Notes: generated by a model not told the origin, from the sequence alone. A DNA stretch of 56,859 nucleotides from a virus (IMGVR_UViG_3300031949_000044:1-56859); one strand, 5' to 3'; counted from the stretch's first letter, positions 7,267 through 32,177 are shown. A program made the numbers and translations.

Positions 7267-9870
7267 CTACCCGGTCATATGTCCGAAGAACCCAGTTTGT
7301 CCGTTAAGCGCTATACCTACCCAGTAGACCTGACCGCCGCGCTTCGTCTCCGCGATCCCCGTGCTAGCTACCCGCTTGTTGAACTTTCGCTGCCCGAGTG
7401 CGATGAACCTGTTGGCCTGGCACCAGTTCTCGTACCTCTGGAACAGGTGTGCCTTGATGACCTCCGCGTCAGGCGTGGGAACGATCTGCTCTTGGGCGAA
7501 GGCAGTCTCCAGGAACTGGAGTGCGGTGTCGTTCTCCACCCGGTACTTCTCGCCCGCGTCCGTGACAGCCTGCGGTGCGCTGACTCCTTGCCCTCGGAAC
7601 TTGGCTAGACCCTCTAGGAGCCAGTTCAGGATCCCATCCGCCTCGGCCAGGAGCTTGTCCAAGATCTCGTGATCCTCGGTCGCGCTACCCTCGAACTTCT
7701 GGTTGAACTCAATGACCTTGATGCGTCCCCAGGCCGCCGGGTCATCCGGGTTGATCTTCGGGTTGTGGTTCGTGGCCATCCACATCACGGCCTGAGGGGT
7801 CCAAGACTGTGGCGCCTCGTACAGACCACGAGAAGTGATCGAGTCCTGGCCAGTGAGGCGCTTGATCAGTTCCTCGTCCAGCTTCGAGTCCTCGGCCGAC
7901 TCAGACGTTGCCACGAACCGCTTTCCGCGCAACGCGTGAAGCTCCACAGTGGACGTGTTGTCACCCTTCTTGGCTCGGAACAATGATGCCGCTGCCGTGC
8001 CTCCGTAGTCACCGAACACCTGGGTCAGGGTCTCGACCAGCTTGGACTTACCGGTTCCGGGAGGTCCGGACAGTAGAGCCATGGCTCGCCGGTTCGGCTT
8101 ACCCAGCAAGGAGTAGCCGGCCATCCGTTGCAGGAAGTCGCGAGTCTCGGGGTCCGGGATGACCTCCTCAAGGAACTGGAGCCAGCGAGGAGCGGTCGCG
8201 GCCGGTCGATATGTCGCACCGAAGGTCTTCGAGAGCATGTACCTGGGGTCGTGAGCCAGGAGTTCGCCACTCTCCAGGTTCAGGATTCCGTTGCGTACGT
8301 TCAGATACTTCGGGTCCACGTCGAAGTCATGGGCGTGCGCCTCGACTCCGGGCTCAGCCCGGTACATGGCGACCGTGCCCTCGACCTTGCTGTTGGCGTT
8401 CGAGGTGCTGGCCCATTTACTCAGTGCCGTGCCCTCCTCGCCCAAGAGCCCGGCTTGCTTTTTGGTGATCTTGTTCATTCGCTTGACGGCGGCCTTGATC
8501 GGGTCCTGGTTCAGCGCGAACCGCCAGGCAGAGCCTTCCCAGACGGCCCACTTTTTCATGTCCGCGCAGTATCGGTAACCGGTCGGGTACATGGCTACCA
8601 TGCGTTCCGCGTTGCCACCGTCACTGTGTTCGTACATGGAGAGATCAGGTACCGCGACCTGTTGCGGGACAACGGAATCCTCGGGTACACCAATCAGGAT
8701 CGGTGGGCACCAAGCGGCCAGCTCAACCGGCTCCGCGTCCATCATGACGGTGCGAGCCTCGCCGAAACCCTTCTCTCGCAAGGATTTGGCAGCCGCACTC
8801 ATGTCACCGGCGTGGTGGTATGCCGCGTACACATACTGTTTCGTGTGTTCCTTCTGTGCTTCAAGCTCAAGGACGTCGGTACTGAATATCCAGATCCTGT
8901 CCCGGTCCGCGGCGTGCCCGGTGGATGCACTGTGCCCATCCCTGCGGTCCTTGCCGGGTCGTACCCAGTACCTGGTCTCCCCGATCTGGTGGGAGAAGGC
9001 CCAGCCCAGCGGGATCAGGATGTCGGCCCAGTCCGTCTTCGCCTCGTAGTCGTCCAGGGGAGAGAGACCAGACAGAGGGGAGGGGGTGTTCCGGGGAGCT
9101 GGTCGTGGTGCCGGCTTCGGGATGACGTCCTTGGCAGCCAAGGTCGCTGACTCGGTCAGGTCGGCCATCGTATACATGGTGCCGGAGTTCTCGGTGAGGA
9201 TCTTGCACGGTCGCTCCATCCCCGCCTTCCGGTTCACCGTGCCAGGGATCCGGAGTACCCGGGCCAGGTCGTGGATGCCGGTCCCGTACTCGAAGCCGGC
9301 GCGCTCGAAGGCGTGGCCGATGATCCGATGCCACTGCTCAGATCGGGCCTGGAGTTCGGGCAGCCCTTCCTCGGTGACCCGGAGCGGATCCTTGAGTAGC
9401 CACCACGGATAGAGTCCGCCACCTGAGTGGATCCAGAGGGTTGGCTCGGGGAGCCCGGAGCTGGCCAGGATGATCTTCGCCTGCTCGACGGTCTCCGGAA
9501 GATCCAGTTTCTTGTGCCGGTGTGGCTTGGGACAATCGTCGGTACAAACCTCGTGCTTGTGGCCAGGACCACGCAGATCGATGTCGGCCCAGAAGCCGGG
9601 GAACGTCAGCGTGTCCTTGACCCCGCCTCGCTCACCCTTGTCCAGGCGCCTGGAGACCGTGGTGGCCCGGACGTAGATACCCTCGGTACCGCCGTTGTGC
9701 AGGGACTCTATGTAGTACAGGGCCTTGGAGACCCAGTCGGTCTTACTCAAGTCAATAGTTGCCCCGGCAAAGTTCCCCACGGAACAGATGTGCAGGAACC
9801 CTTCCGAGTCCCCGTGGAGCTGCTCAAGCCAGACCTGCGCCTCGTCCCGATCAAACCCGGCTTGTGGCAT
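7267..9870 (-). CDS. DNA primase-helicase (RepB/AEP-like primase fused to a D5/P4-type SF3 helicase)
   Basis: WADID, HSGGG..PWW and RVLRIPGTVN primase motifs; Walker A GPPGTGKS; IKRLTGQD and ATNHNP SF3 motifs. Confidence 0.9.
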   Translation of the reverse strand: MPQAGFDRDEAQVWLEQLHGDSEGFLHICSVGNFAGATIDLSKTDWVSKALYYIESLHNGGTEGIYVRATTVSRRLDKGERGGVKDTLTFPGFWADIDLRGPGHKHEVCTDDCPKPHRHKKLDLPETVEQAKIILASSGLPEPTLWIHSGGGLYPWWLLKDPLRVTEEGLPELQARSEQWHRIIGHAFERAGFEYGTGIHDLARVLRIPGTVNRKAGMERPCKILTENSGTMYTMADLTESATLAAKDVIPKPAPRPAPRNTPSPLSGLSPLDDYEAKTDWADILIPLGWAFSHQIGETRYWVRPGKDRRDGHSASTGHAADRDRIWIFSTDVLELEAQKEHTKQYVYAAYHHAGDMSAAAKSLREKGFGEARTVMMDAEPVELAAWCPPILIGVPEDSVVPQQVAVPDLSMYEHSDGGNAERMVAMYPTGYRYCADMKKWAVWEGSAWRFALNQDPIKAAVKRMNKITKKQAGLLGEEGTALSKWASTSNANSKVEGTVAMYRAEPGVEAHAHDFDVDPKYLNVRNGILNLESGELLAHDPRYMLSKTFGATYRPAATAPRWLQFLEEVIPDPETRDFLQRMAGYSLLGKPNRRAMALLSGPPGTGKSKLVETLTQVFGDYGGTAAASLFRAKKGDNTSTVELHALRGKRFVATSESAEDSKLDEELIKRLTGQDSITSRGLYEAPQSWTPQAVMWMATNHNPKINPDDPAAWGRIKVIEFNQKFEGSATEDHEILDKLLAEADGILNWLLEGLAKFRGQGVSAPQAVTDAGEKYRVENDTALQFLETAFAQEQIVPTPDAEVIKAHLFQRYENWCQANRFIALGQRKFNKRVASTGIAETKRGGQVYWVGIALNGQTGFFGHMTG

Positions 9871-13334: not shown

Positions 13335-13556
13335 CTATCTCCAGTCACAGCGTACGTAGACAGTCTTGTTGGGATAGTCAACAGTGTCTATCTTGCCTAT
13401 CCAGAGGGTGTCGAACTCAGGGTCGTACAACTCCACCAGTTCCCCGACCAGTGGCACCGTGGGCGGAACGTCGAACTCTAGGAACTGGAACCAGATTCCG
13501 TCGCTCCTGCGCTCGAACTCCAGGGCCGGTGCTCGGAGCTTTACCGGCTGCGTCAT
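13335..13556 (-). CDS. Hypothetical protein
   Basis: 73-aa ORF coupled to its neighbours. Confidence 0.6.
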   Translation of the reverse strand: MTQPVKLRAPALEFERRSDGIWFQFLEFDVPPTVPLVGELVELYDPEFDTLWIGKIDTVDYPNKTVYVRCDWR

Positions 13557-13969
13557 GGGCGACCCACATCCTTCTTCCAGACAAACATCCCCAGGACCCC
13601 CAGGTCCAGGCAGGTCAGATCCCCGGCCACACAGTCTTGGCGCACGGACGGGCCAGGCTTTCCCAGGTACATCGACGCGGTCCTCAGGGAGATCAGGTCG
13701 GCTGGCGAGATTCCGGCCCGTTGGAGCTTGGCGAGCGTGTCCAGGTAACCGAGATAGAACTTCGCGGCTCGGCGACTCGACTCCTTCCAGACCTGGAAGG
13801 CTGACCCATCCTCCCAGGTCTTCACGGTGGCCGCGTAGGTGCCCAGTAGCTGGGCCAGGGACACCATAGACAGCGAAAACTCAGCCCTGACCAGGGCCAG
13901 CCAACCGGACCTGATCACCTGAGTTCCGAGTTTGATGAGATCTTGATCGCGGGGAACGGTGATAGGCAC
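13553..13969 (-). CDS. HTH DNA-binding protein (XRE-like)
   Basis: LSMVSLAQLLGTYAATVKTWEDG; TAGGAT 5 nt before the start suggests a leaderless transcript. Confidence 0.65.
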   Translation of the reverse strand: MPITVPRDQDLIKLGTQVIRSGWLALVRAEFSLSMVSLAQLLGTYAATVKTWEDGSAFQVWKESSRRAAKFYLGYLDTLAKLQRAGISPADLISLRTASMYLGKPGPSVRQDCVAGDLTCLDLGVLGMFVWKKDVGRP

Positions 13970-13993
13970 GATTCATCCTATCCACCCCCTCCC

Positions 13994-14116
13994 CTACGTG
14001 AACGCGACCCAGGCCAGGACGAGGAGACTAATCACCACGCCTGACCAGATGAAGAACAGCAATGCGTTCGCCTCGTCCTCGCACCCCTGGCAGTAGGTGT
14101 GCCGGTGACAGGACAT
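13994..14116 (-). CDS. 40-aa membrane peptide
   Basis: Cys-rich N-terminus plus a TM helix; start overlaps the upstream stop. Confidence 0.45.
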   Translation of the reverse strand: MSCHRHTYCQGCEDEANALLFFIWSGVVISLLVLAWVAFT

Positions 14117-14376
14117 CAGACCTCCCTCGTGGCGCGTTCAATCGTGCTCCGGATCGTCGCTACCACCCAGGCGGTCATCACCCAGTGCGACATGAACATG
14201 ATCGAGAACCCCAGCAGGAAGGACGAAAGTGCCACGTCCACCTTCGACCTGTCCGGGTTGGATAGCCCGAATACGACGGTGACCGCTTCGAAGATAATGA
14301 TCACCAGGGTCAGGTGCGTGGTGACCCACTTCTTTCGAGAGAACAGCTCCTTGATCACATCCTTGAACATCTTCAT
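14116..14376 (-). CDS. Two-TM membrane protein
   Basis: Two hydrophobic segments; strong AGGAGGAG RBS. Confidence 0.7.
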   Translation of the reverse strand: MKMFKDVIKELFSRKKWVTTHLTLVIIIFEAVTVVFGLSNPDRSKVDVALSSFLLGFSIMFMSHWVMTAWVVATIRSTIERATREV

Positions 14377-14393
14377 CTCCTCCTTTCCTGTTG

Positions 14394-14469
14394 CGCCGCT
14401 GACAGGATTCGAACCTGCAACCTCCGGGACCCCCTAGGCCCGGTGTTCAACCGTTGACACTTCAGCGGC
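14394..14469 (-). ncRNA. tRNA-like RNA with a 10-nt anticodon loop
   Basis: GCCGCTG/CAGCGGC acceptor stem, GCAGG-TTCGAAT-CCTGT T arm, anticodon stem CCGGG/CCCGG enclosing CCTAGGGGGT; no CCA. Confidence 0.7.
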
Positions 14470-14521
14470 GATGGGTGGGGGTCCGGCGCACCACCCTCTT
14501 GGTTCCGGACCCCCACGTCTA

Positions 14522-15760
14522 TCAGTGTTGCGGGTAGAACGTCACCGTGTCGTTGGGACGGTCCTCGTCGCCCTCGACCAGGGTCGGCAGAGAGTCCTGC
14601 CGATTACGGCGAATGAGGAACATGAGGCCGGCGCCCGCGAGGATCAGGAACGCACCGCTACCGGCGATCCAAGGGACGGGGTTACCGCCACTGGTGCCGG
14701 TGAGTGCCAGACCGCCTGGGGCCGCGTTACCTTCCACGACCTCACAGCCGATGCCGTCTTTGTCGCTGTCCAGGTCCAACGTGTAGCCCGGCTCGGTACT
14801 CAAGATTGGTGCCTTACCGGCAGCTCGGACGGCGTCGCAGTTGGCGTACAACGGTGCTGGGGTCGTGGCCGGCGGGGTCGTGGGGACAACGGTCGGGGTG
14901 ACGGTTGGCGTCGGCGTCGCAGTTGGCGTGGCACAGACAGTCGGCTTGATGCACCTGACCCGCTTGATCGTCCGATCCAGGAACTTGACCTCCAGCCAGC
15001 CGTCCGTCGTAGTGACGCCGGTGAAGGTGTTGGTGCCCATGACCAGGGTCTTCAGCGATCCGTTGATCCACACCTTGACGCCCGGAGCCAGCTTGTTGAC
15101 CACGGTCACGTCGACCTTGCCATCGCACTGGACCTTGTAGGACACATCCAGACATTTGTCGATGTCGCCGAGGGACAAGCCGGTGATGTCGCCGGAGTTA
15201 CCGTCTGCGCTCTGGATGTGCTGCTGGTTGCAGCTTACGTACTTCCATGCCCAGGACGTCAGCTTGCCCTCGTGGCCCTCGGACCAGAGCTTGTCGACCC
15301 ACGGGCCGGTCGAGTCGGCGTTGGTGCCGCTCGGACTCCAGAAGGGCCAGTTGGTTGGGTTGGCCGGGTCGTAGGGCGCCACGTAGGTCGCCGTGAACTT
15401 GCCGGCGAAGGTGCCCTCGATGCCGGGGACCATGGGGTTGTTGTTCGAGGACTTGATGCCGATGGTCTTGAACGTCCCAACGTCCTCGCCGACGACCTTG
15501 AAGGTTGCCGTGGTGACCGCGACCAGGGCCTTTTCGACCTCAGGCATTACGACCGGCTCCACGCAAACCTTGACGGTGCGCACGAATGTGTCGGTGGCCC
15601 AGTTGTGACCGCCAACCACCGCGCTGTCCGGTCGGACCATGTTCTGGGTGACCGTCTTACAGTTCTCGTCCACCGCACCAGCGGGACCGGAACCGAGCGT
15701 GGCACCGAACAGGCCACCGGCGACAACCGCCACCAGGGCCAGAGCTACACGATTCTTCAA
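14522..15760 (-). CDS. Secreted cell-wall-anchored protein with an Excalibur Ca-binding domain and LAxTG sorting signal
   Basis: Signal peptide; P/T linker; YANCDAVRAAG...LDSDKDGIGCE; LALTG followed by a TM helix and RRNR. Confidence 0.85.
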   Translation of the reverse strand: MKNRVALALVAVVAGGLFGATLGSGPAGAVDENCKTVTQNMVRPDSAVVGGHNWATDTFVRTVKVCVEPVVMPEVEKALVAVTTATFKVVGEDVGTFKTIGIKSSNNNPMVPGIEGTFAGKFTATYVAPYDPANPTNWPFWSPSGTNADSTGPWVDKLWSEGHEGKLTSWAWKYVSCNQQHIQSADGNSGDITGLSLGDIDKCLDVSYKVQCDGKVDVTVVNKLAPGVKVWINGSLKTLVMGTNTFTGVTTTDGWLEVKFLDRTIKRVRCIKPTVCATPTATPTPTVTPTVVPTTPPATTPAPLYANCDAVRAAGKAPILSTEPGYTLDLDSDKDGIGCEVVEGNAAPGGLALTGTSGGNPVPWIAGSGAFLILAGAGLMFLIRRNRQDSLPTLVEGDEDRPNDTVTFYPQH

Positions 15761-15816
15761 TGCTCCTCCTTCTCTATGAAACCCGTGTATCGAACCACAG
15801 GATGGTGATCTTGGCA

Positions 15817-15966
15817 CTAGACCGAGGAACCAAGCTTGGTCCACTTGTTGTGGATCTTCCTCGCCTCGTCGTAGCTGATCTGACCCTGGACCTTCTCCCA
15901 GTACCGCTGCCAGACCTCGGCATACGTAGTGGGCGGGGACCACGGCTTGGCCGCACTCGTTGCCAT
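15817..15966 (-). CDS. 49-aa hypothetical protein
   Basis: AAAGGAG RBS immediately after the tRNA-like element. Confidence 0.6.
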   Translation of the reverse strand: MATSAAKPWSPPTTYAEVWQRYWEKVQGQISYDEARKIHNKWTKLGSSV

Positions 15967-15980
15967 GTGACTCCTTTCCG

Positions 15981-16046
15981 GGGGGAGAGCAGGACTCGAA
16001 CCTGCACCCTGTCCGTCGACTGCGCTGCCAGTTGCGCTATCTCCCC
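15981..16046 (-). ncRNA. tRNA-like RNA with a truncated anticodon arm
   Basis: GGGGAGA/TCTCCCC acceptor, GCGC D stem, GCAGG-TTCGAGT-CCTGC T arm; anticodon arm is only GTC-GACG-GAC. Confidence 0.75.
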
Positions 16047-16102
16047 GAGGCCGGAACCCTGCTGCTGTCAAAATCAGCAGGGGTCCGGCGGTCTAGCGGA
16101 TG

Positions 16103-17605
16103 TTACTCGTCCTCGTCCTTCTTCAGGATGTCCCAGCCCTCGACCCGGTGATCCACCAGCACGTCGCTGACCAGGTCCTCCAGAAGTCCGTCGATCGTCG
16201 GGACGTTGGCACCCTCGCGAGCGCCCTCCATGAGTTCGAGCTGACGCTTCATGCCGGCCGCCGCGTTAACCAGATCCTCCGTGTTGATCGGTTCGGTCGG
16301 GATGCCGCCGGCACGCAGGATCGCGTACCGCTTGGTGCGCTGAATGGCTTCGACGTTGAACGCCGGACCGTATCCCTTGAACGCCTCGGCGACCTGGGCG
16401 TAGTCAATGTCTCCGAGCATGTTCGCCGGGAGCACCGCCTTCACCAGCTTCTCGTAGCCTCCCGCGTCCAACGGTCCGATGTGGATTACCGCATCGAGTC
16501 GGCCAGGACGCATGACGCCCTTCTGGATGTTCTCCACATAGTTCGTGGTGAACACGGCCATGATCGCACCGGACTTGGCCTGGATGCCGTCGAGTGCCTC
16601 CAGGAGCTTGGAGATGAAGTCATCATCCCCGGCCTGCTTGGTGTCCAGGTCCTCGAACCAGAGCACGGCAGGCGCGTAGATCTTCGCGGTCTTGATCGCC
16701 TCGAACAGGTTGTCCTTGCCGGGACGCACTTGAATGAACGTGTGGCCGGCGGCGATCGCCTCCTGTGCCGTCAGGAGACCGGCCAGGGTCTTGCCCGTAC
16801 CGAACGGACCCTCCAGAAGCACGTGCCGCTTGGAGCCCAACTGTGCCGCCTTCGCCGCTTCCGGGTACCGCAGACCCAGCCAGACGTGGGCCTCCAGCTC
16901 CTTCAGGACGTCGTCGGAGTACACGACCTTCTTCGGGTCCACCGAAATGTCGATGAACCCGGGGTGCTGGCCACCATCGATGGCCTTACCCTTGTAGATA
17001 GAGTTGGTCCTCAGCTCCTCCTCCAGGCGCATGAAGAAGCCCTCGATCCGCGCCCGGAACCGCTTCGGCGCGGTGGCCTGGATGCTGCCAACGACACCGT
17101 CCTCCGAGACGTTGTACCCGACGTCGAAGGTGCACTCCAGGTTGGGGAGCCTGACCAGCCCCCACGGAACCTGGATCGACTCGGTCAGGCTGAGCGGAAC
17201 GGTCATGAACTCCGGTGGCTCCGGGCCGAACATGGTCTGGCGCGTGACCCCCATCCCGGTGTTGCCGAAGATCGACTCCAGGGTCCGGTGGAACGCGGCG
17301 GCCACGTCGTAGGGCCGATACTTGAACGTTCGGGTGACCCGGTGCTCCTTGGCGAGATCCCGCCGGTGCCGGTCGATGTACGCCATGAACTCGTCCAGGC
17401 GACCTTCGTACGCGGCCGGGATGACGATCCGCGTGCCCTCGTAGACCAGAGTGTCGTCGCGAACGGTCATGCCACCCAGGGCGTCCAGGAGCCGGAACGC
17501 GGTGTTCTGGATCTGCTCCGACTCGCTGGCAAAGTTCTCGGCCCGCTGGCGATCGGCTTCCACTCCCTGCATCAGGAGTTTGACATCGATCCCCGTCGTC
17601 GGCAC
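16103..17605 (-). CDS. AAA+ ATPase
   Basis: Walker A GPFGTGKT, Walker B VLWFEDLD, SRH TTN...MRPGRLD. Confidence 0.9.
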   Translation of the reverse strand: MPTTGIDVKLLMQGVEADRQRAENFASESEQIQNTAFRLLDALGGMTVRDDTLVYEGTRIVIPAAYEGRLDEFMAYIDRHRRDLAKEHRVTRTFKYRPYDVAAAFHRTLESIFGNTGMGVTRQTMFGPEPPEFMTVPLSLTESIQVPWGLVRLPNLECTFDVGYNVSEDGVVGSIQATAPKRFRARIEGFFMRLEEELRTNSIYKGKAIDGGQHPGFIDISVDPKKVVYSDDVLKELEAHVWLGLRYPEAAKAAQLGSKRHVLLEGPFGTGKTLAGLLTAQEAIAAGHTFIQVRPGKDNLFEAIKTAKIYAPAVLWFEDLDTKQAGDDDFISKLLEALDGIQAKSGAIMAVFTTNYVENIQKGVMRPGRLDAVIHIGPLDAGGYEKLVKAVLPANMLGDIDYAQVAEAFKGYGPAFNVEAIQRTKRYAILRAGGIPTEPINTEDLVNAAAGMKRQLELMEGAREGANVPTIDGLLEDLVSDVLVDHRVEGWDILKKDEDE

Positions 17606-17662
17606 GAGTGAGTTGTTGCTGCTAATGATCTTCTCCCTTCCTCGATTCCTTTGATGTGTACG

Positions 17663-17821
17663 TGGGGAGACCAGGATTTGAACCTGGAACCTACGGTGTG
17701 CCGGAGCTGGAGCCTTTCGGCGTGCGTCTCACATGCGGCGCATGTCCAACAGAGGTGACCAGGGAGGACGAGATCCCTATCGCTCCGGTGACCGTTGCTC
17801 TGCCCGTTGAGCTATCTCCCC
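17663..17821 (-). ncRNA. tRNA-like RNA with an approximately 90-nt structured insertion in the anticodon loop
   Basis: GGGGAGA/TCTCCCC acceptor, GCTC/GAGC D stem, ACGGT/ACCGT anticodon stem, CCAGG-TTCAAAT-CCTGG T arm; the insert is closed by CCGGAGC/GCTCCGG. Confidence 0.75.
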
Positions 17822-17851
17822 GGGCGGGGACCGAAGTCCCCCTTGCTGGTG

Positions 17852-18658
17852 TTACGCGACCACGATCAGGTCGCCGGTCGATGGTTGCAGGTTCTTGACC
17901 TGGCCCGCGTAGACCCGGCCTTGCCGCTGGTTGTCGGCACTCAGCAACTTGGCCGCTTCGATGGCTCCGGCCTCGTCGTACGCCTGGACCTCGTACCGCA
18001 CGACGGCGGCGATCGGGGCCTCGACGTAGAAGTACTTCTTGGCGGGTAGTGGGTCGAGCTTCAGCTTGCGAAGCTCATCGTTGATGCCAGAGAGGCACAA
18101 CCGAGCTTCGTTCTGAAGCCAGATGGCCTGCTCTCGCGCCGCCACCTTGAGGGCCTCGTACTCCGCCTCCAGTGTCGCGTACTGCTCCACCAGTGACACC
18201 TCGGCGCCGTCGACCGTTGCGGTATCGGCGGCCTTGGCGGCGTCGGCCTGGACGATCAGGTTCAGGGCCGTGACGTCGCGCTGGACGTTGCCGTCCCTGA
18301 GGTTCAGCACGGTGCGGTCCGAGCGGCCCAGGTGCTTGGCCCCGTCCAGCCCGATCTTGGCCAGCAGGGCCGTTGCGGCCTCAGCCTCGGTCGTACCGGT
18401 CACGCTGTACGTCCGGTCCAGGGTCGCCGGAAGCGTGAACTCGAAGGTCTTCGCCTCCGGCGGCTCCGACAGGCCCAGCGCCGTCAGGACGATGGCCCTC
18501 TGCGGATTGCTGACGTTGCCCATCACCGAGCCGACGATGCCGGCCTTCAGCTTGTCCAGCTTCTTCTGGCTGGCCGCGATGCGCTCGCGCCACTGGTCGT
18601 CGGTCAGTGGAAATGTGGCCCTGCCCGTGACCTTCGCGGCGGTTTCCTTGAGACTCAA
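17852..18658 (-). CDS. Hypothetical protein (coiled-coil segments)
   Basis: 268-aa ORF with strong GC3 bias and AAGGGAGAG RBS. Confidence 0.75.
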   Translation of the reverse strand: MSLKETAAKVTGRATFPLTDDQWRERIAASQKKLDKLKAGIVGSVMGNVSNPQRAIVLTALGLSEPPEAKTFEFTLPATLDRTYSVTGTTEAEAATALLAKIGLDGAKHLGRSDRTVLNLRDGNVQRDVTALNLIVQADAAKAADTATVDGAEVSLVEQYATLEAEYEALKVAAREQAIWLQNEARLCLSGINDELRKLKLDPLPAKKYFYVEAPIAAVVRYEVQAYDEAGAIEAAKLLSADNQRQGRVYAGQVKNLQPSTGDLIVVA

Positions 18659-18699
18659 GAATCTCTCCCTTCGTTGGGTCTTGCTTGGTTGATATAGGA

Positions 18700-18728
18700 A
18701 CAGTAGCCTACTCGGACTGTGTAGTCAA
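18700..18728 (-). promoter_or_regulatory. Sigma70-type promoter
   Basis: TTGACT-N17-TACTGT. Confidence 0.6.
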
Positions 18729-18735
18729 CCCCCGA

Positions 18736-19152
18736 TCAGAAAACCAACACCTCACATCCGAGCTGATTCGCTGACTCAGCCTTGAACATGCCTTGTGCGT
18801 TGTACCCGACCATGTACGCCGAACACCCCACATTTACCGGGTGTGGCCAATCCGGGAACACGTCGATCGTGGCGACTCGGCCCTTGATCGAGTTACAGGA
18901 CGCCTTGAAGATCCGCTTGGGCGTCTGGTCGTTGACCACAGCCGCCTGGATCCCCCTACCGTCTGCGCAGTCATAGTTCACTGCCGCGTGACGATACTCA
19001 CTGGTAGCGGTCAGCCGGACCTGACGGGTGCTGTCTGGGTCGTCTTGCCTGGGTTTCGGATCGAAGAACTTGCCGCCGGTACCCATGCTGATCACGACCA
19101 AGGCACCGATCGCGATCAGGAATCCAAGTATTCGAATACGTGAAGTGACCAT
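18736..19152 (-). CDS. Membrane-anchored surface protein (MmpS-like beta domain, tentative)
   Basis: N-terminal TM helix, beta-rich Cys-containing ectodomain, GGAGG RBS. Confidence 0.6.
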   Translation of the reverse strand: MVTSRIRILGFLIAIGALVVISMGTGGKFFDPKPRQDDPDSTRQVRLTATSEYRHAAVNYDCADGRGIQAAVVNDQTPKRIFKASCNSIKGRVATIDVFPDWPHPVNVGCSAYMVGYNAQGMFKAESANQLGCEVLVF

Positions 19153-19171
19153 TGCCCTCCTCTCCTATGCG

Positions 19172-19250
19172 TGGGGTGGGCAGGATTCGAACCTGCGCAT
19201 ACGGCTCATCAAGCCCGGGTGCCGCGCTCTACCATTTGAGCTACCACCCC
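19172..19250 (-). ncRNA. tRNA-like RNA with an expanded (about 15-nt) anticodon loop
   Basis: GGGGTGG/CCACCCC acceptor, GCTC/GAGC D stem, canonical T arm; CGGC/GCCG encloses ACCCGGGCTTGATGA. Confidence 0.75.
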
Positions 19251-19850
19251 AAGGTGCCGATCCAGGGACCCCTCTCCTTGCGGAGCAAGCGCCGGTGCCA
19301 AACCCATCAATGGGCCTGTGCGCGGGGTACCTGGATCGGACTTGTGAGCGAAGGGTGAAGGCATGCCCTCCCAGGGTGCTTCGCTCGGTCGCAGGGAACC
19401 TAAGGTGCCGTAACTGGACAGTCGGATCCGCCAGTGATGAGCACGCCCTTCCGATGGGCGTTTCCTGTGACGATATGGAGTCACGCCTTGCATCCGGGCT
19501 ACTCCTCTACCCCATTGGCCTGGATCCTGACTTTCCAAGTCCATCCGGCGGCAGCTTGGTGCGTTCGCGGGTTCCTGGGCGACGGTTACCCCAGGCAAAT
19601 GGACGGCCTTGACCGTTCTTTACCCACTTCGTGATCGAGATCCTCCATCCCCCACTTGGGCGAAGATTGCCTCTCGCCATCCAGAATCAGTGGCTACTGG
19701 ATGGACACCAGTCACGCGCTGGTTGCTTGTGTCCCTGGTTTCCGACTGGGTCGATCAACTCCAGTCACCTTCAGGAGATCCGCAGGCGATCAGTCAGGTC
19801 ATCGCGCATCTCTGACTGGAAGGCGTCTCCACGCCCGGGACCCAGGCGTC
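19251..19850 (-). ncRNA. Candidate large structured ncRNA
   Basis: About 600 nt without a credible ORF and dense in inverted repeats (ccgatccagg/cctggatcgg, gagcgaag/cttcgctc, ccatccag/ctggatgg, cagtcag/ctgactg). Confidence 0.5.
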
Positions 19851-19970
19851 TGCTTCAGAAGATCTACGTACCGGCGAGGACCACGATCACCAGGATCATG
19901 ATCACCACCGCGACCGCGATCAACGGTGGTGGCTGCCAGTCTTCCACGAAAACGTACTCCTCTTTCCTGT

Positions 19971-20046
19971 TGGTGGATCACCTGGGACTCGAACCCAGAA
20001 CCGCCTGATTAAGAGTCAGGAACTCTGCCAATTGAGTTAGCGATCC
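19971..20046 (-). tRNA. tRNA-Lys(CTT)
   Basis: Canonical cloverleaf, CCTGA-CTCTTAA-TCAGG anticodon arm, encoded CCA. Confidence 0.9.
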
Positions 20047-20320
20047 AGGCAAGTTGGTGGGGGGACCTGACGGAAGGGAGTCCAACGCCAGGTCCCCCGT
20101 TTCAGGTGGGAAGCACGCGGCGGCCTGGACGGGGAGAACGGGCTGGCCGCGTGCTTGTGGGGGAAGAACACCACCTGAAGTTTGATGCCGGGTTTGAATT
20201 TCAAGACCAACCCACCCGGGCCAAGGTCATGGTGCTGTACCACTGCCCGTATCTAGAAAAGGCTTCACCCGATCTTGCCTACGTGATCACCGTGTCGGGA
20301 GGCTAGTGTCTAGCCACATT

Positions 20321-20390
20321 GTGCCGTGACGGGACTCGAACCCGCGTTCTTCCCCTCGCGAGGGACGCTCTGCCACTGAGCTACACGACG
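20321..20390 (-). ncRNA. tRNA-like RNA with a 4-nt anticodon loop
   Basis: TAGCTCAGTGGCAGAGC D arm, GCGGG-TTCGAGT-CCCGT T arm, TCCCT-CGCG-AGGGG anticodon arm, C1:A72 mismatch. Confidence 0.7.
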
Positions 20391-20487
20391 GATCTTCCAG
20401 CTACTGATTCCACGTTCCACGGCTGGTACGCGTCCCCGCACCCATCCAGGTGCACCGCTTCCTGAGTCCTGGTCACTGGTCGATCTC

Positions 20488-20877
20488 TTACCAGCCGGGA
20501 CTACCGGCGGCTTTCAGTTTGGCTCTATATCTGCGAGCCTTCAGTCTCTGATGCGTCTTGCAGTCGTCACACTTGCAACCGTTGCGGTACATGGTACCAG
20601 TGCCGTGCGTCTTTTGGCTCTTCTCGTAGTTGCTCTTGATCTGGTGACATGCCCGACAGAGCACTTGGCACTTGACCAGCTCTGCGTCTCGGCGCACCCG
20701 GGACCAGGACCACACGGCATGATGGACCTTGGTCCGTGGGTTCAGATGGTCCAGCTCCAGATTCTCTGTCGAGCCACATTTTCGGCACGGTCCGTTGGCT
20801 GCGAACCAAGCCTCGCGGCGCTTGTTCATCCATGCCAATTGATACGCCGCCTGTTGGGCGGGGTCCTTGTACCCCAT
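20488..20877 (-). CDS. HNH endonuclease within the tRNA cluster
   Basis: CRKC...LELDHLNP...CQVLCRACH; C-terminal HGT..Y..GCKCDDC motif. Confidence 0.85.
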   Translation of the reverse strand: MGYKDPAQQAAYQLAWMNKRREAWFAANGPCRKCGSTENLELDHLNPRTKVHHAVWSWSRVRRDAELVKCQVLCRACHQIKSNYEKSQKTHGTGTMYRNGCKCDDCKTHQRLKARRYRAKLKAAGSPGW

Positions 20878-20901
20878 GTTGCGGGATACTACATGAACCC
20901 T

Positions 20902-20978
20902 TGGTGCCGGGGGCCAGATTTGAACTGGCGACTTCCGACTTATGAGGACGGCGAGCTACCAAGCTGCTCCACCCCGGT
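20902..20978 (-). tRNA. tRNA-Met(CAT), initiator-like D arm
   Basis: CTCATAA loop, TGGAGCAGCTTGGTAGCTC D arm, 1:72 mismatch, encoded CCA; lacks the three G-C anticodon-stem pairs of fMet tRNA. Confidence 0.8.
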
Positions 20979-21201
20979 GCGGACAGAGACCCACGGAGAG
21001 GTGCGTCCACGTGCGTAGGTCTCTGCCCTGGGTATGGGTGCCGTGCCAAGGGGATGCCCGGTAGGTGCTCGGCATGATTACCGCTGTTCACCCATACTGT
21101 CTTTGAAGATCCACTATGCAATTCTCAACCTACAGTAGCGCCTTCTGGAGTGCTACGCGGCTGAGTCTGCAACCTCCCCGTCGCTCTCCCTTGCATCCCA
21201 A

Positions 21202-21231
21202 ACGATAGACCCCCTCCCCCGGGGGTGTCAA
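21202..21231 (-). promoter_or_regulatory. Major leftward promoter carrying the CCCCCGGGGGAGGGG spacer motif
   Basis: TTGACA-N18-TATCGT, divergent from the terminase gene. Confidence 0.75.
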
Positions 21232-21286
21232 CCGGATTCTGCAAGATCTTTCCAGGTCCTGATCAACAGGCCCTAGTATTAGCCCT

Positions 21287-22717
21287 ATGGGTATGTCCAC
21301 AGCCGAACGTATCGCCAGGCTGCCGGCTGCCCAGCGAAAGAAATGGGTCGAATCCCTGCCCGATGACATGGTCCGGGAGATGTCGCGTGGGGAATGGTGG
21401 TACACGGCTCGACCGGAACAGGTCCCCCCTCCCGGCAACTGGATGGTGCACCTGGCACTCGCGGGACGCGGCTGGGGAAAGAGTCGTGCCGGCTCGGAGT
21501 GGCTGGTTGAGCGGACCCAGCTCCATCCATTCGATCGTCATGGCGCGCCAACTGAATGGCTGGTGATCGCGGAGACGCTGTCTGATGCCCGGACCATTTG
21601 TATGGAAGGACCAGCCGGGATTTTACGCGTCCTGGATCGTCGGGAGATCAAGTATCGGTACAAGCAGACCCCTCGTCCCATGGTGCTGTTCCCAGACGGT
21701 ACGAAAATCTACTGTGAAGGCGCCGACGATGCGGACGTAGCTCGTGGACGTAACGCTGCCGGCGGGTGGCTTGACGAGCTTGCGAAATGGTCCTATAGCT
21801 ACGCAAGCTGGTACGAAGGTATCATGCCCTCCCTCCGGGCCGACCTCGCCGGGGATCACCCACGGGTCTTCGTCACCACCACCCCGAAGCCGATCAAGCT
21901 GCTCCAGGAGTGGATCAAACGGACCGATGGGACTATTTCCCTGGTATCCGGGTCTACGTTCGACAACCGGGCCAACCTGTCCCAGCAGGTCCTCACGGAG
22001 CTGGAGAACCGGTACCGGGGAACCACCATCGGACGCCAGGAGCTGTACGGGGAACTCCTGGAGGCGATCGAAGGCGCCCTGTTCCGTCGCTCGGACATCA
22101 ACCGCAACCGGGTCAAGAGCATCCCGGATGGTTCTCGGGTGACCAGCATCGTGGTCGGCGTGGACCCTGGTCTCACGGACGAGGGCGACCACACCGGGAT
22201 CGTGGTGGTGGGCAGGAACAACAAGGACAACCACATGTACGTTCTCGCCGACCGTTCGACTCTGGGCGCCGGGCGCGAGGTGGCGATCATCTGCTGGCGG
22301 ACCCTGGCCGAGTTCGGCGGGGACTGGTTGGTGGTCGAGAACAACCTGGGTAAGCGCTGGATGTCCGATGTGTTCTCGGACGCGTACAACGAGCTGGTCA
22401 AGGATGGTCTCTTCCCTGCCGGCACACAGCCACCGATCAAGACCGTCGACTCCAAGGTCGGCAAGCAGACCCGGGCTCAACCGGTGGCCATGCGCTACGA
22501 GCAGAACAAGATCCATCACGTTGGGAAATACGATGATCTAGAAGACGAGATGGTGTCCTACATGCCCGACGTCAAGGACAGCCCGGACCGGATGGATGCA
22601 CTTGTCCACGCCGTTCGATGGCTTATGGCCCAGGAGAAGCGGTCCCTGCGGATGGCCTCTCCGCAACAAGTGGACGTGGAGTTCTCCCGGCTGATGAACG
22701 AGTTGAACCTGACCTAG
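21287..22717 (+). CDS. Terminase large subunit
   Basis: AGRGWGKS Walker A, WLDE Walker B, VTTTP, VGVDPG and DRMDA nuclease motifs. Confidence 0.95.
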   Translation: MGMSTAERIARLPAAQRKKWVESLPDDMVREMSRGEWWYTARPEQVPPPGNWMVHLALAGRGWGKSRAGSEWLVERTQLHPFDRHGAPTEWLVIAETLSDARTICMEGPAGILRVLDRREIKYRYKQTPRPMVLFPDGTKIYCEGADDADVARGRNAAGGWLDELAKWSYSYASWYEGIMPSLRADLAGDHPRVFVTTTPKPIKLLQEWIKRTDGTISLVSGSTFDNRANLSQQVLTELENRYRGTTIGRQELYGELLEAIEGALFRRSDINRNRVKSIPDGSRVTSIVVGVDPGLTDEGDHTGIVVVGRNNKDNHMYVLADRSTLGAGREVAIICWRTLAEFGGDWLVVENNLGKRWMSDVFSDAYNELVKDGLFPAGTQPPIKTVDSKVGKQTRAQPVAMRYEQNKIHHVGKYDDLEDEMVSYMPDVKDSPDRMDALVHAVRWLMAQEKRSLRMASPQQVDVEFSRLMNELNLT

Positions 22718-31859: not shown

Positions 31860-32177
31860 ATGTCAGCTATCTACCCGCCGAGCAACGCGAGTATGCGGAC
31901 CATCCCGGTGGCAGCGGCCACAACTGTGCTCCTGGCCCGTCCGGCCACCGTGTACGGGTACTATCTGACGAACTCAGCAGCCGGTACCGCCGTTACCCTG
32001 ACCGTCTTCGACAACACCACGGCGGTTGGCGCGAAGATCCTGGCTCGGATCGACGTGGCCGCGACCGGTGCGACGACCGGCCTGGTGCTGTTCCCGAATC
32101 CGATCCAACTGACCGTTGGCCTTTCGGTGATCCTGACCGGTGGCAACTTGTCATACGGCTGGATCCTGGCCGACTAA
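31860..32177 (+). CDS. Small virion protein (paralog of the previous gene)
   Basis: Same motif pattern as 31563-31856. Confidence 0.7.
   Translation: MSAIYPPSNASMRTIPVAAATTVLLARPATVYGYYLTNSAAGTAVTLTVFDNTTAVGAKILARIDVAATGATTGLVLFPNPIQLTVGLSVILTGGNLSYGWILAD

Follow-up and report, generated by a model that had tools for sequence, protein, structure and literature searches.

Anticodon-less tRNA-like elements at gene boundaries in a tailed phage and its relatives

Five elements resembling transfer RNA (tRNA) lie between the genes of a leftward operon in the virus IMGVR_UViG_3300031949_000044, whose record of 56,859 nucleotides (nt) was analysed as a whole and is called the window below. These elements keep the acceptor, D and T arms of a tRNA but have no anticodon arm able to decode, and similar elements recur in related phages and in many other viral sequences. 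The pattern of changes among them argues for selection on the fold of the retained arms, and the elements could be tRNA-derived shells that are cut by tRNA-end-processing enzymes of the host.

Elements without a decoding anticodon arm

The search with the Rfam tRNA model RF00005 gave seven full-length matches in the window, all on the minus strand within 14394-20978, and our own covariance model recovered the identical seven elements with zero extra. The five elements listed in a preliminary description of this sequence were all found again, together with two canonical tRNAs of the same array, Lys-CTT and Met-CAT, which had been omitted there. The seven elements are as follows (bp, base pairs; RBS, ribosome-binding site):

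14394..14469, minus strand: tRNA-like element 1, 7-bp acceptor stem, 5-bp anticodon stem with a 10-nt loop
15981..16046, minus strand: tRNA-like element 2, 66 nt, anticodon arm cut to a 3-bp stem with a 4-nt loop
17663..17821, minus strand: tRNA-like element 3, 7-bp acceptor stem, D and T arms as in a normal tRNA, branched 92-nt insert on a 5-bp anticodon stem
19172..19250, minus strand: tRNA-like element 4, 7-bp acceptor stem, 4-bp anticodon stem with a 15-nt loop
19974..20046, minus strand: canonical tRNA-Lys (CTT) with encoded CCA
20321..20390, minus strand: tRNA-like element 5, C1/A72 mismatched, discriminator base C, neither encoded CCA nor an RBS close by
20905..20978, minus strand: canonical tRNA-Met (CAT), initiator-like (A1/C72 unpaired, three G-C pairs in the anticodon stem), with encoded CCA

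All five aberrant elements exceeded the gathering score of RF00005 (29 bits), with 43.6, 49.0, 53.7, 55.3 and 46.7 bits for elements 1-5, respectively, and covered model positions 1-71. Our own parse assigned them 7, 7, 7, 7 and 6 acceptor pairs, a T stem with 5/5 pairs in each case, T loops of the sequence TTCGAAT, TTCGAGT or TTCAAAT, and a D arm retaining A14 and GG, which bears out the earlier claim of five tRNA-like RNAs with intact acceptor, D and T arms. The combination of a 5-bp anticodon stem, a 7-nt loop, U33 and a purine at position 37 was present in none of the five; Met-CAT and Lys-CTT have 5-bp anticodon stems and 7-nt loops. Since the elements score above the tRNA threshold yet have no defining anticodon arm, they are not working tRNAs. 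The forms of this arm were as previously described for elements 1-4, while the loop of element 5, given as 4 nt, proved to be 5 nt on a 5-bp stem or, alternatively, 7 nt with C33 on a 4-bp stem. Element 3 is predicted to adopt a cloverleaf whose extended arm branches three ways (−67.9 kcal/mol, z = −3.1). The trinucleotides following the discriminator base are CAA, CGG, CGT, CGC and AAT in elements 1-5, thus none of them encodes CCA, as had been claimed. ARAGORN labelled 14394-14469 as Pro-AGG and 20321-20390 as Arg-GCG, and gave 19172-19250 a four-letter anticodon. Rfam searches for transfer-messenger RNA (tmRNA) and YrlA returned no match in the window at the gathering threshold or at E ≤ 1, and no TROVE/Ro60 domain was detected in the 74 open reading frames (ORFs) scanned; judged from these searches, the elements are not mimics of tmRNA or YrlA.

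All seven matches are intergenic and have the orientation of the operon, and each of the five elements occupies a boundary of same-strand protein-coding messages. The stop codon of the upstream gene is located 30-56 nt before elements 1-3, and these three elements are preceded by the following hairpins:

14477..14514, minus strand: GC hairpin with a 10-bp outer stem and no U tract, ending 7 nt before element 1
16051..16087, minus strand: long GC hairpin with no U tract, ending 4 nt before element 2
17826..17842, minus strand: GC hairpin with a 6-7-bp stem, TTCG loop and no U tract, ending 4 nt before element 3

The claim that three elements follow a GC-rich hairpin was therefore upheld, with the hairpin of element 3 not exceeding the background. 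The 70 nt upstream of element 1 fold with −31.7 kcal/mol (background fraction 0.014) and those upstream of element 2 with −29.6 kcal/mol (0.044), while the same interval at element 3 is unremarkable (0.23). Met-CAT and Lys-CTT are likewise preceded by strong hairpins, and none of the window hairpins upstream of elements is terminator-like. For the 61 matches of the phage clade described below, the 70 nt upstream had a mean energy of −26.3 kcal/mol compared with −20.5 in 295 background windows (Mann-Whitney p = 2e-9). On the other side of the elements, a script located a Shine-Dalgarno (SD)-like motif and the ATG of an 86-amino-acid (aa) ORF 17 nt downstream of element 1, an RBS and the ATG of a 49-aa ORF 14 nt downstream of element 2, and an RBS and the ATG of a 138-aa ORF 19 nt downstream of element 4. 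Four elements had been said to lie 5′ of an RBS; an SD and a start codon were thus found by script for three of them, and the fourth, element 3, has a purine-rich stretch on its 3′ side, ahead of the ATPase gene, which was recognized by reading.

Retention of the fold in related phages and beyond

Relatives were collected through the ATPase of the operon (G001, 59% identity) and through the terminase large subunit (TerL; G002-G022, 45-61% identity). They are mostly 55-59 kilobases (kb) in length, and G000-G022 were included in the counts. RF00005 matched 17 of the 21 TerL-related records, the remaining four being fragments of 14-38% completeness, and 103 matches of at least 29 bits were obtained in total. 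A match was regarded as canonical when it passed a strict test (at least 4/5 anticodon-stem pairs, 7-nt loop, T33 and R37; one borderline case was reclassified by hand). Two of the 19 phage records with matches, G003 and G018, have ordinary tRNA sets and were left out of the counts of aberrant elements. The six matches of G003 are five canonical tRNAs and one partial, while 27 of the 36 matches of G018 passed the strict test and ARAGORN named an anticodon for 34. The latter matches extend over ~23 kb of a ~56-kb genome, which is an unusually large set for a phage of this size. Outside these two records, 55 of the 61 matches are aberrant in the anticodon arm and six pass. The aberrant elements are 58-159 nt long, and in four elements (one below 29 bits) the D and T arms are joined by a bare linker of 9-11 nt. 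In the 16 genome regions with elements, all were intergenic and followed the orientation of the operon, and the clade of the window carries 3-8 elements per 55-59-kb genome.

The acceptor stem of the 55 aberrant elements has 7/7 pairs in 41 cases, 6/7 in nine and 5/7 in five; the T stem is fully paired (5/5) in 54, the T loop opens with TTC in 53, and A58 is present in all 55. A14 and the GG of the D loop were found in 52 elements each, and T8 in 49. These features are shared by elements with as many as 38 distinct acceptor stems. Covariation across relatives, which the preliminary description had named as a check, was analysed in an alignment of 31 sequences, where 97.0% of the cells were paired compared with 68.3% in shuffled alignments (0/500 shuffles reached 97.0%) and with 42-48% when the partners were slid by 1-3 columns. 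Two-sided changes were seen at 15 of the 16 pairs, and these compensatory changes in the acceptor, D and T stems argue that selection acts on the RNA fold.

The position of the elements is also retained. A family of genes for ~250-aa proteins, whose members are 25-62% identical and only faintly similar to the 268-aa ORF of the window, has an element 33-86 nt upstream in 9/9 genomes; at this site, G017 has a weak match of 17.7 bits with a 45-aa ORF between the element and the gene. The arm at this site can be a 5-bp stem bearing a 7-nt loop (C33), a tetraloop hairpin or, at the upper end, an insert of 56 nt. In G001, the nearest relative, one normal tRNA-Trp and three aberrant elements were detected, the latter with a 35-nt anticodon region, with a 31-nt insert in the D loop plus a 5-nt anticodon loop, and with an extended arm. 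G001 and the window alike have aberrant elements before the ATPase gene and before a 260-aa gene, with 109 nt in the window against 33 nt in G001 and a 15-nt loop against a 5-nt loop at the orthologous sites. In G001, a GC hairpin lies ahead of the pre-ATPase element and the upstream fold is weak at the other one, while the Excalibur cassette and elements 1 and 2 are absent. The relatives thus did not present canonical tRNAs with mutations over all arms, which the preliminary description had considered for these places; what the orthologous sites hold are anticodon-less forms of other shapes, whose acceptor, D and T arms are intact. At the strain level, contigs from two other studies diverge by ~3% over the 1.8 kb surrounding element 4, and among the differences listed for the element are five substitutions and two insertions, all of which fall in 19205-19221, that is, the innermost stem pair and the loop of its anticodon arm. 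Four results show that the elements are not decaying, namely, the intactness of the other arms, the maintenance of pairing despite sequence change, the conserved position and the confinement of the listed strain differences to the anticodon arm; neither damage over all arms nor absence from diverged relatives, the hallmarks of pseudogenes, was found. The earlier argument that damage in one arm speaks against random decay is accordingly strengthened, with nearly all matches aberrant in the same arm, covarying stems and strain variants that agree.

CCA follows the discriminator base in only two of the 55 aberrant elements, while CG follows it in 37 of them and in 22 of the 36 matches of G018. 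This shared trailer suggests that aberrant elements and the G018 tRNAs may use one common 3′-processing route.

Several subtypes could be distinguished by their stems and loops. The subtype with C1/A72 and discriminator C, which includes element 5, occurs in at least eight related genomes. Another, with G3:U70 and A73, is conserved across genomes at a locus away from the main array. Short-armed or armless elements with these bases were noted at L081:693-762, L098:735-802, L102:721-789 and L085:3192-3246, three of the four far from the main array; G3:U70 with A73 is the acceptor identity set of tRNA-Ala, and such elements might be chargeable with alanine and yet be non-decoding. The third subtype, with a 6-bp stem and a TCAC loop, is also conserved across genomes. 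Its orthologues at L087:1297-1368, L101:2590-2661, L092:1260-1330 and L100:1115-1187 have the T loops TGCGAAT, CGCGAAT and CGCATAT; these non-TTC copies were missed by the Rfam search and score 56-62 bits with our own covariance model, and the elbow contact may be altered in this subtype. At L096:1073-1145, L097:3078-3151, L085:3020-3092, L095:1536-1609 and L093:2507-2610 a 6-bp hairpin abuts the 5′ end of the element with no spacer. The hairpin shows, by eye, compensatory differences between genomes, and a small ORF running through the conserved spacer into the element was set aside, as the differences between genomes appeared compensatory for this hairpin. The flanks of the subtype, again judged by eye, contain a near-invariant stretch of ~25 nt upstream and a conserved stretch of ~35 nt downstream with a complement to the 7-nt loop; the CCUCACG loop could pair with CGUGAGG located ~25 nt downstream.

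Elements of this kind are not confined to the clade. IMG/VR was scanned with an exact pattern in which the T arm follows the D arm within 6-13 nt, and at least 119 stretches matched. At least 111 viral contigs have at least 6/7 acceptor pairs together with a 5/5 T stem, at least 96 of them with 7/7, and at least 58 combinations of acceptor and linker occur among these armless matches, the commonest linker being 8 nt; with an earlier, looser pattern, just six of 80 loci could be parsed as armless elements. The same pattern gave 118 parsed matches in bacterial genomes, 27 of which have at least 6/7 acceptor pairs. Bacterial loci were examined alongside three armless elements from IMG/VR contigs, and five of the six bacterial loci adjoin phage-family genes (terminase, portal, tail or ParB-like), among them loci in prophage regions of Corynebacterium flavescens CCUG 28791T, Microbacterium sp. 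AG1240, a Glutamicibacter strain and Streptococcus porci DSM 23759; no phage-family match was found near the locus of Microbacterium hydrothermale. One armless element and the 1.2-kb stretch around another had no end-to-end match among GenBank phages. The class therefore extends far beyond the phage of the window. The other 91 bacterial matches, mostly from Bacteroidota, are unpaired in the tested acceptor register and were left out of the count. In dozens of Bacteroidota genomes (L336-L454), the D and T arms are joined by an AACAGA-type linker of 10-13 nt with ~4 acceptor-like pairs in the tested register, and these loci may represent a separate, possibly chromosomal, tRNA-like element.

Genome context

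The window has a G+C content of ~61% and an estimated completeness of 97%, and it corresponds to the whole IMG/VR virus record; near-identical DNA is present in soil and sediment metagenomes of several studies. Scans with Pfam and PHROG profiles revealed the gene set of a tailed phage. From 21.3 kb onwards, the plus strand carries genes for the terminase large subunit, the portal, a MuF-like protein, the major head protein and the tail. The leftward operon extends on the minus strand from ~21.2 kb down to ~3.3 kb and encodes an HNH endonuclease, an AAA ATPase, an Excalibur-domain protein, MazG-like, Cas4-like exonuclease, primase/helicase and ParB-like proteins. The features surrounding the elements are:

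21202..21231, minus strand: promoter-like site (TTGACA, 18-nt spacer, TATCGT) at the operon head, upstream of tRNA-Met
20488..20877, minus strand: HNH endonuclease gene (phrog_4234, E 4e-41) between tRNA-Met and element 5
18736..19152, minus strand: 138-aa ORF, first gene after element 4, no Pfam or PHROG match
17852..18658, minus strand: 268-aa ORF, distant kin of the ~250-aa gene family, no Pfam or PHROG match
16103..17605, minus strand: AAA ATPase gene (phrog_10440)
14522..15966, minus strand: 49-aa ORF (15817-15966), then a secreted or membrane protein with an Excalibur calcium-binding domain

The promoter-like site was the sole sigma-70-like match on both strands of 13500-21500, and it is a weak lead because this count (1) is not above that of the shuffled sequences (mean 1.4). 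Along with the lack of terminator-like hairpins ahead of the elements, the site at the operon head lends indirect support to their putative co-transcription with the neighbouring genes. The HNH gene has ~70% nucleotide identity to HNH genes located within tRNA arrays of Bxz1-type (cluster C) mycobacteriophages, and it may encode a homing nuclease travelling with tRNA cassettes. The listed start of the ATPase gene is a GTG ~57 nt past element 3, and a strong purine-rich RBS lies ~20 nt further upstream, behind which there are only ATC/ATT codons, with TTG at the matching place in G001. The true start may therefore be a non-standard codon ~20 nt further upstream. The ~0.6-kb segment between tRNA-Lys and element 4 (19260-19900, minus strand) is poor in ORFs, with one 27-codon membrane-like ORF directly after tRNA-Lys. 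In the strain contig X4 it has many indels of 1-2 nt, and the stretches 19388-19564 and 19744-19825 are replaced; this segment is probably non-coding and fast-evolving.

Comparison of the region with GenBank phages yielded zero matches by megablast and just fragments of tRNA and HNH genes by blastn. Relatives of the ATPase with 38-41% identity occur in Gordonia phages and Mycobacteroides prophages, and the ATPase stretches of Fryberger and McProf have different gene contexts and no annotated tRNA. The Pfam scan of the 74 window ORFs detected no CCA-adding enzyme, RNA ligase, Ro60, RNase or synthetase-like domain and no known anti-defence gene, and none of the same tRNA-related enzyme classes appeared among the 22 + 8 ORFs scanned with PHROGs.

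Proposed processing, alternatives and significance

The order of stop codon, hairpin, shell, RBS and start codon makes excision from a polycistronic transcript the best-supported reading. We give about even chances to the proposal that RNase P and RNase Z of the host excise the elements as tRNA shells, by which the polycistronic early transcript would be divided and stable non-decoding RNAs released; what we infer here comprises co-transcription, cleavage by both enzymes, stabilisation and whatever role the released RNAs have. For recognition by RNase P, RNase Z and the CCA-adding enzyme, an acceptor/T minihelix with the elbow is sufficient; these enzymes do not depend on the anticodon arm. 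The shells would descend from phage tRNA genes and would have retained just those parts that the tRNA-end-processing machinery of the host reads, namely, a 7-bp acceptor stacked on a 5-bp T stem, the elbow formed by the D and T loops, and a CCA-less 3′ trailer. Transcribed within the leftward early/replication operon, an element would be cut by RNase P at its 5′ end, leaving an upstream messenger RNA (mRNA) that ends in the GC hairpin and is shielded from 3′ exonucleases. RNase Z would then cut after the discriminator base, and the downstream mRNA would begin a few bases before its RBS. The excised RNA of 66-159 nt would be stable, probably CCA-tailed and non-decoding, and its anticodon arm, relieved of decoding, could drift, shrink to nothing or, in some lineages, become a conserved hairpin cargo. 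Of the roles raised in the preliminary description, those of a processing signal and an mRNA stabiliser fit this anatomy: the elements lie between genes and share their orientation, follow a hairpin, precede an RBS and lack CCA.

A number of points weigh against the processing proposal or reduce the force of its evidence. Element 5 has no RBS or start codon nearby, and the hairpins before elements 3, 4 and 5 are no stronger than the background. The highest TerL identity among GenBank phages was 36%, thus no cultured relative is available, and no RNA sequencing run was listed with the sequence of window 14300-21200. The canonical/aberrant test and the ORF calls are home-made heuristics, and tRNA models favour intact acceptor and T arms, so that badly decayed copies would go undetected, a bias that affects the positional and strain-level results to a lesser degree. 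Moreover, in G009, G012, G016 and G019 the elements form arrays of 3-5 within ~1 kb with few or no good ORFs between them. Such tight arrays exceed the need for gene punctuation, and therefore the RNAs themselves or spacers may be the products. Finally, subtype ‘a’ (95-96 nt, four genomes) has a replacement of the arm in which 39-44 of the 46 nt are identical (85-96%), while the flanking 100 nt are just 48-73% identical and the acceptor stems have as few as 4/14 bases in common, though they are always paired. By this contrast, the middle of subtype ‘a’ is a conserved cargo within exchangeable shells, which points to a sequence-dependent task beyond what a mere cutting signal accounts for.

These last two observations favour the possibility that the released RNAs act in trans, either by drawing away, as a decoy or sponge, host factors with affinity for the acceptor end, the T arm or the elbow (defence toxins by which the tRNA 3′ end is modified or cleaved would be an example), or as a tRNA-framed small RNA with the hairpin as its working part; the intergenic place would then merely be convenient for transcription and excision. 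The retention of several distinct subtypes across genomes, a hairpin with a conserved loop found in three inserts with differing stems, and the single armless copies in the other viral contigs point in the same direction. A stretch of 25 nt in the insert of element 3 is 21/25 identical to the insert of G015 32063-32169, but the arms of the window are otherwise not conserved in comparison with G001, and the arm of element 4 is a hotspot of strain-level variation, which is unlike a sequence-specific cargo. The window ORFs likewise offered no tRNA-related enzyme, Ro60 homologue or known anti-defence gene, and the absence of the loop excludes anticodon nucleases as targets of the released RNAs. 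The decoy against anticodon nucleases was disfavoured for this reason, the anticodon loop being the missing or variable part. We consider action in trans less likely than the processing proposal, with which it is compatible, since it needs the same cleavages.

A role at the DNA level seems improbable. In this case the near-identical 17-25-nt sequences of the T and D arms would serve as boundaries for homologous recombination, at which phages exchange cassettes; a cassette would comprise one element with an RBS, at least one gene and a hairpin. The bracketed genes look accessory and differ between the window and G001, which is without the Excalibur cassette and elements 1 and 2, an HNH endonuclease gene lies within the array, and the swapping of acceptor stems around the conserved middle of subtype ‘a’ is what recombination inside an element would yield. 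A role of this type needs no base pairing, yet 15 of the 16 pairs in the alignment show compensatory changes and nearly all cells are paired; recombination may be a side effect. It is still less probable that the elements are tRNA pseudogenes without present function, decaying remnants of a cluster like those of G003 and G018. The real tRNA sets of these two phages make it clear that the elements descend from tRNA genes, and copies damaged in other arms would have escaped a search with tRNA models. The damage in a single arm in 55 elements, the compensatory changes of the stems, the retention at one site in 9/9 genomes and the listed strain differences, found only in the anticodon arm, do not agree with decay, nor do the precisely armless forms with paired acceptors in so many other viral contigs and with such varied acceptor/linker combinations; to our knowledge, phage genomes usually shed dead DNA over such divergence. 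The least probable explanation is that some elements are working tRNAs with unusual anticodon loops, such as element 5 read as Arg-GCG (4 bp, C33) or recoding loops of at least 8 nt. ARAGORN named anticodons for elements 1, 4 and 5, and the orthologue at G019 9641-9713, with a 5-bp stem and a 7-nt loop containing GAA, has the top score of all matches (70.6 bits). However, a name given by ARAGORN, which tolerates introns and odd loops, does not count as evidence of function, orthologues differ in the length and sequence of the loop, and U33 is missing in the two best candidates. We know of no way in which loops of 4, 5, 10 or 15 nt or a 92-nt insert could present an anticodon.

The processing proposal has counterparts in other systems. 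Mitochondrial transcripts are said to be punctuated by tRNAs, whose excision by RNase P and RNase Z frees the mRNAs (Ojala, Montoya and Attardi are named for this, 1981). In both cases tRNA-shaped units are placed between the cistrons of one long transcript, but the mitochondrial punctuation marks are working tRNAs, whereas five of the seven members of the phage array cannot decode. Non-decoding, tRNA-shaped handles for RNase P and tRNase Z are represented by mascRNA at the 3′ end of MALAT1 and by the TMERs of murine gammaherpesvirus 68. Like the phage elements would do, these handles set the ends of, or release, a neighbouring RNA, and TMERs are also virus-encoded; they are, however, eukaryotic, depend on nuclear enzymes and, in the case of TMERs, on polymerase III promoters, and have no link to a translated polycistronic mRNA. 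The tRNA-like domain of tmRNA and YrlA resemble the phage elements in mimicking the acceptor/T-arm half with no anticodon, but the topology differs, as only the phage elements are plain cloverleaves whose 5′ and 3′ termini pair as the acceptor stem. The t-elements of plant mitochondria are tRNA-derived sequences with no encoded CCA; RNase P and RNase Z cleave them at the ends of mRNAs, and they are CCA-tailed and base-modified, but not aminoacylated (PMC1920247, Forner et al., 2007; PMC11658184). The phage elements have the sequence-level features of t-elements, and both have a tRNA-derived, non-decoding fold, no encoded CCA and a position at the ends of protein-coding messages. The t-elements are organellar and few, with eight annotated in Arabidopsis, while the phage elements are viral, number 3-8 per genome and are often arrayed; the anticodon region of the latter ranges from complete deletion to inserts of >90 nt, sometimes with a conserved cargo, and their cleavage is predicted. 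Phage tRNAs with altered anticodon loops that escape host anticodon nucleases have also been described (van den Berg et al., 2023, PMC10264068). Those tRNAs and the elements of the window are both phage-borne and tRNA-derived, belong to an actinophage setting and are changed chiefly at the anticodon loop, but the former still decode, whereas the latter are without the loop geometry altogether.

A search of the full-text literature, with supplements and subscription journals outside its reach, found no description of anticodon-less tRNA-like elements in phages. What would be new here is the presence of tRNA-like processing handles in bacterial viruses, in large numbers and with deleted or replaced anticodon arms. 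We tentatively suggest, at somewhat less than even odds, that anticodon-less shells form a widespread, unnamed class of phage RNA, which provides a handle for the tRNA-end enzymes of the host and a nuclease-resistant frame, and which is used empty, in arrays or with interchangeable hairpin cargos as a natural counterpart of the laboratory ‘tRNA scaffold’; the clade of the window, with up to ~8 shells and several conserved subtypes per genome, would be its richest example so far. The conserved cargos and the acceptor subtypes with C1/A72 and G3:U70 would raise the question of whether some shells also act on host factors that bind tRNA, and the armless copies in prophages of cultured bacteria that are harmless make the class directly testable. 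If the processing proposal is true, many odd tRNA calls in phage genomes would be explained, and RNA expression in a tRNA frame, as well as cassettes for processing several genes in bacteria, could draw on the elements as natural designs tried by evolution. Tailed phages would then shape their own polycistronic messages as mitochondria and a few eukaryotic RNAs do, by drawing RNase P and RNase Z to tRNA-shaped handles. Phage gene expression would thereby have a further, post-transcriptional layer, which annotation pipelines discard because anticodon-less ‘tRNAs’ are dropped or mislabelled.

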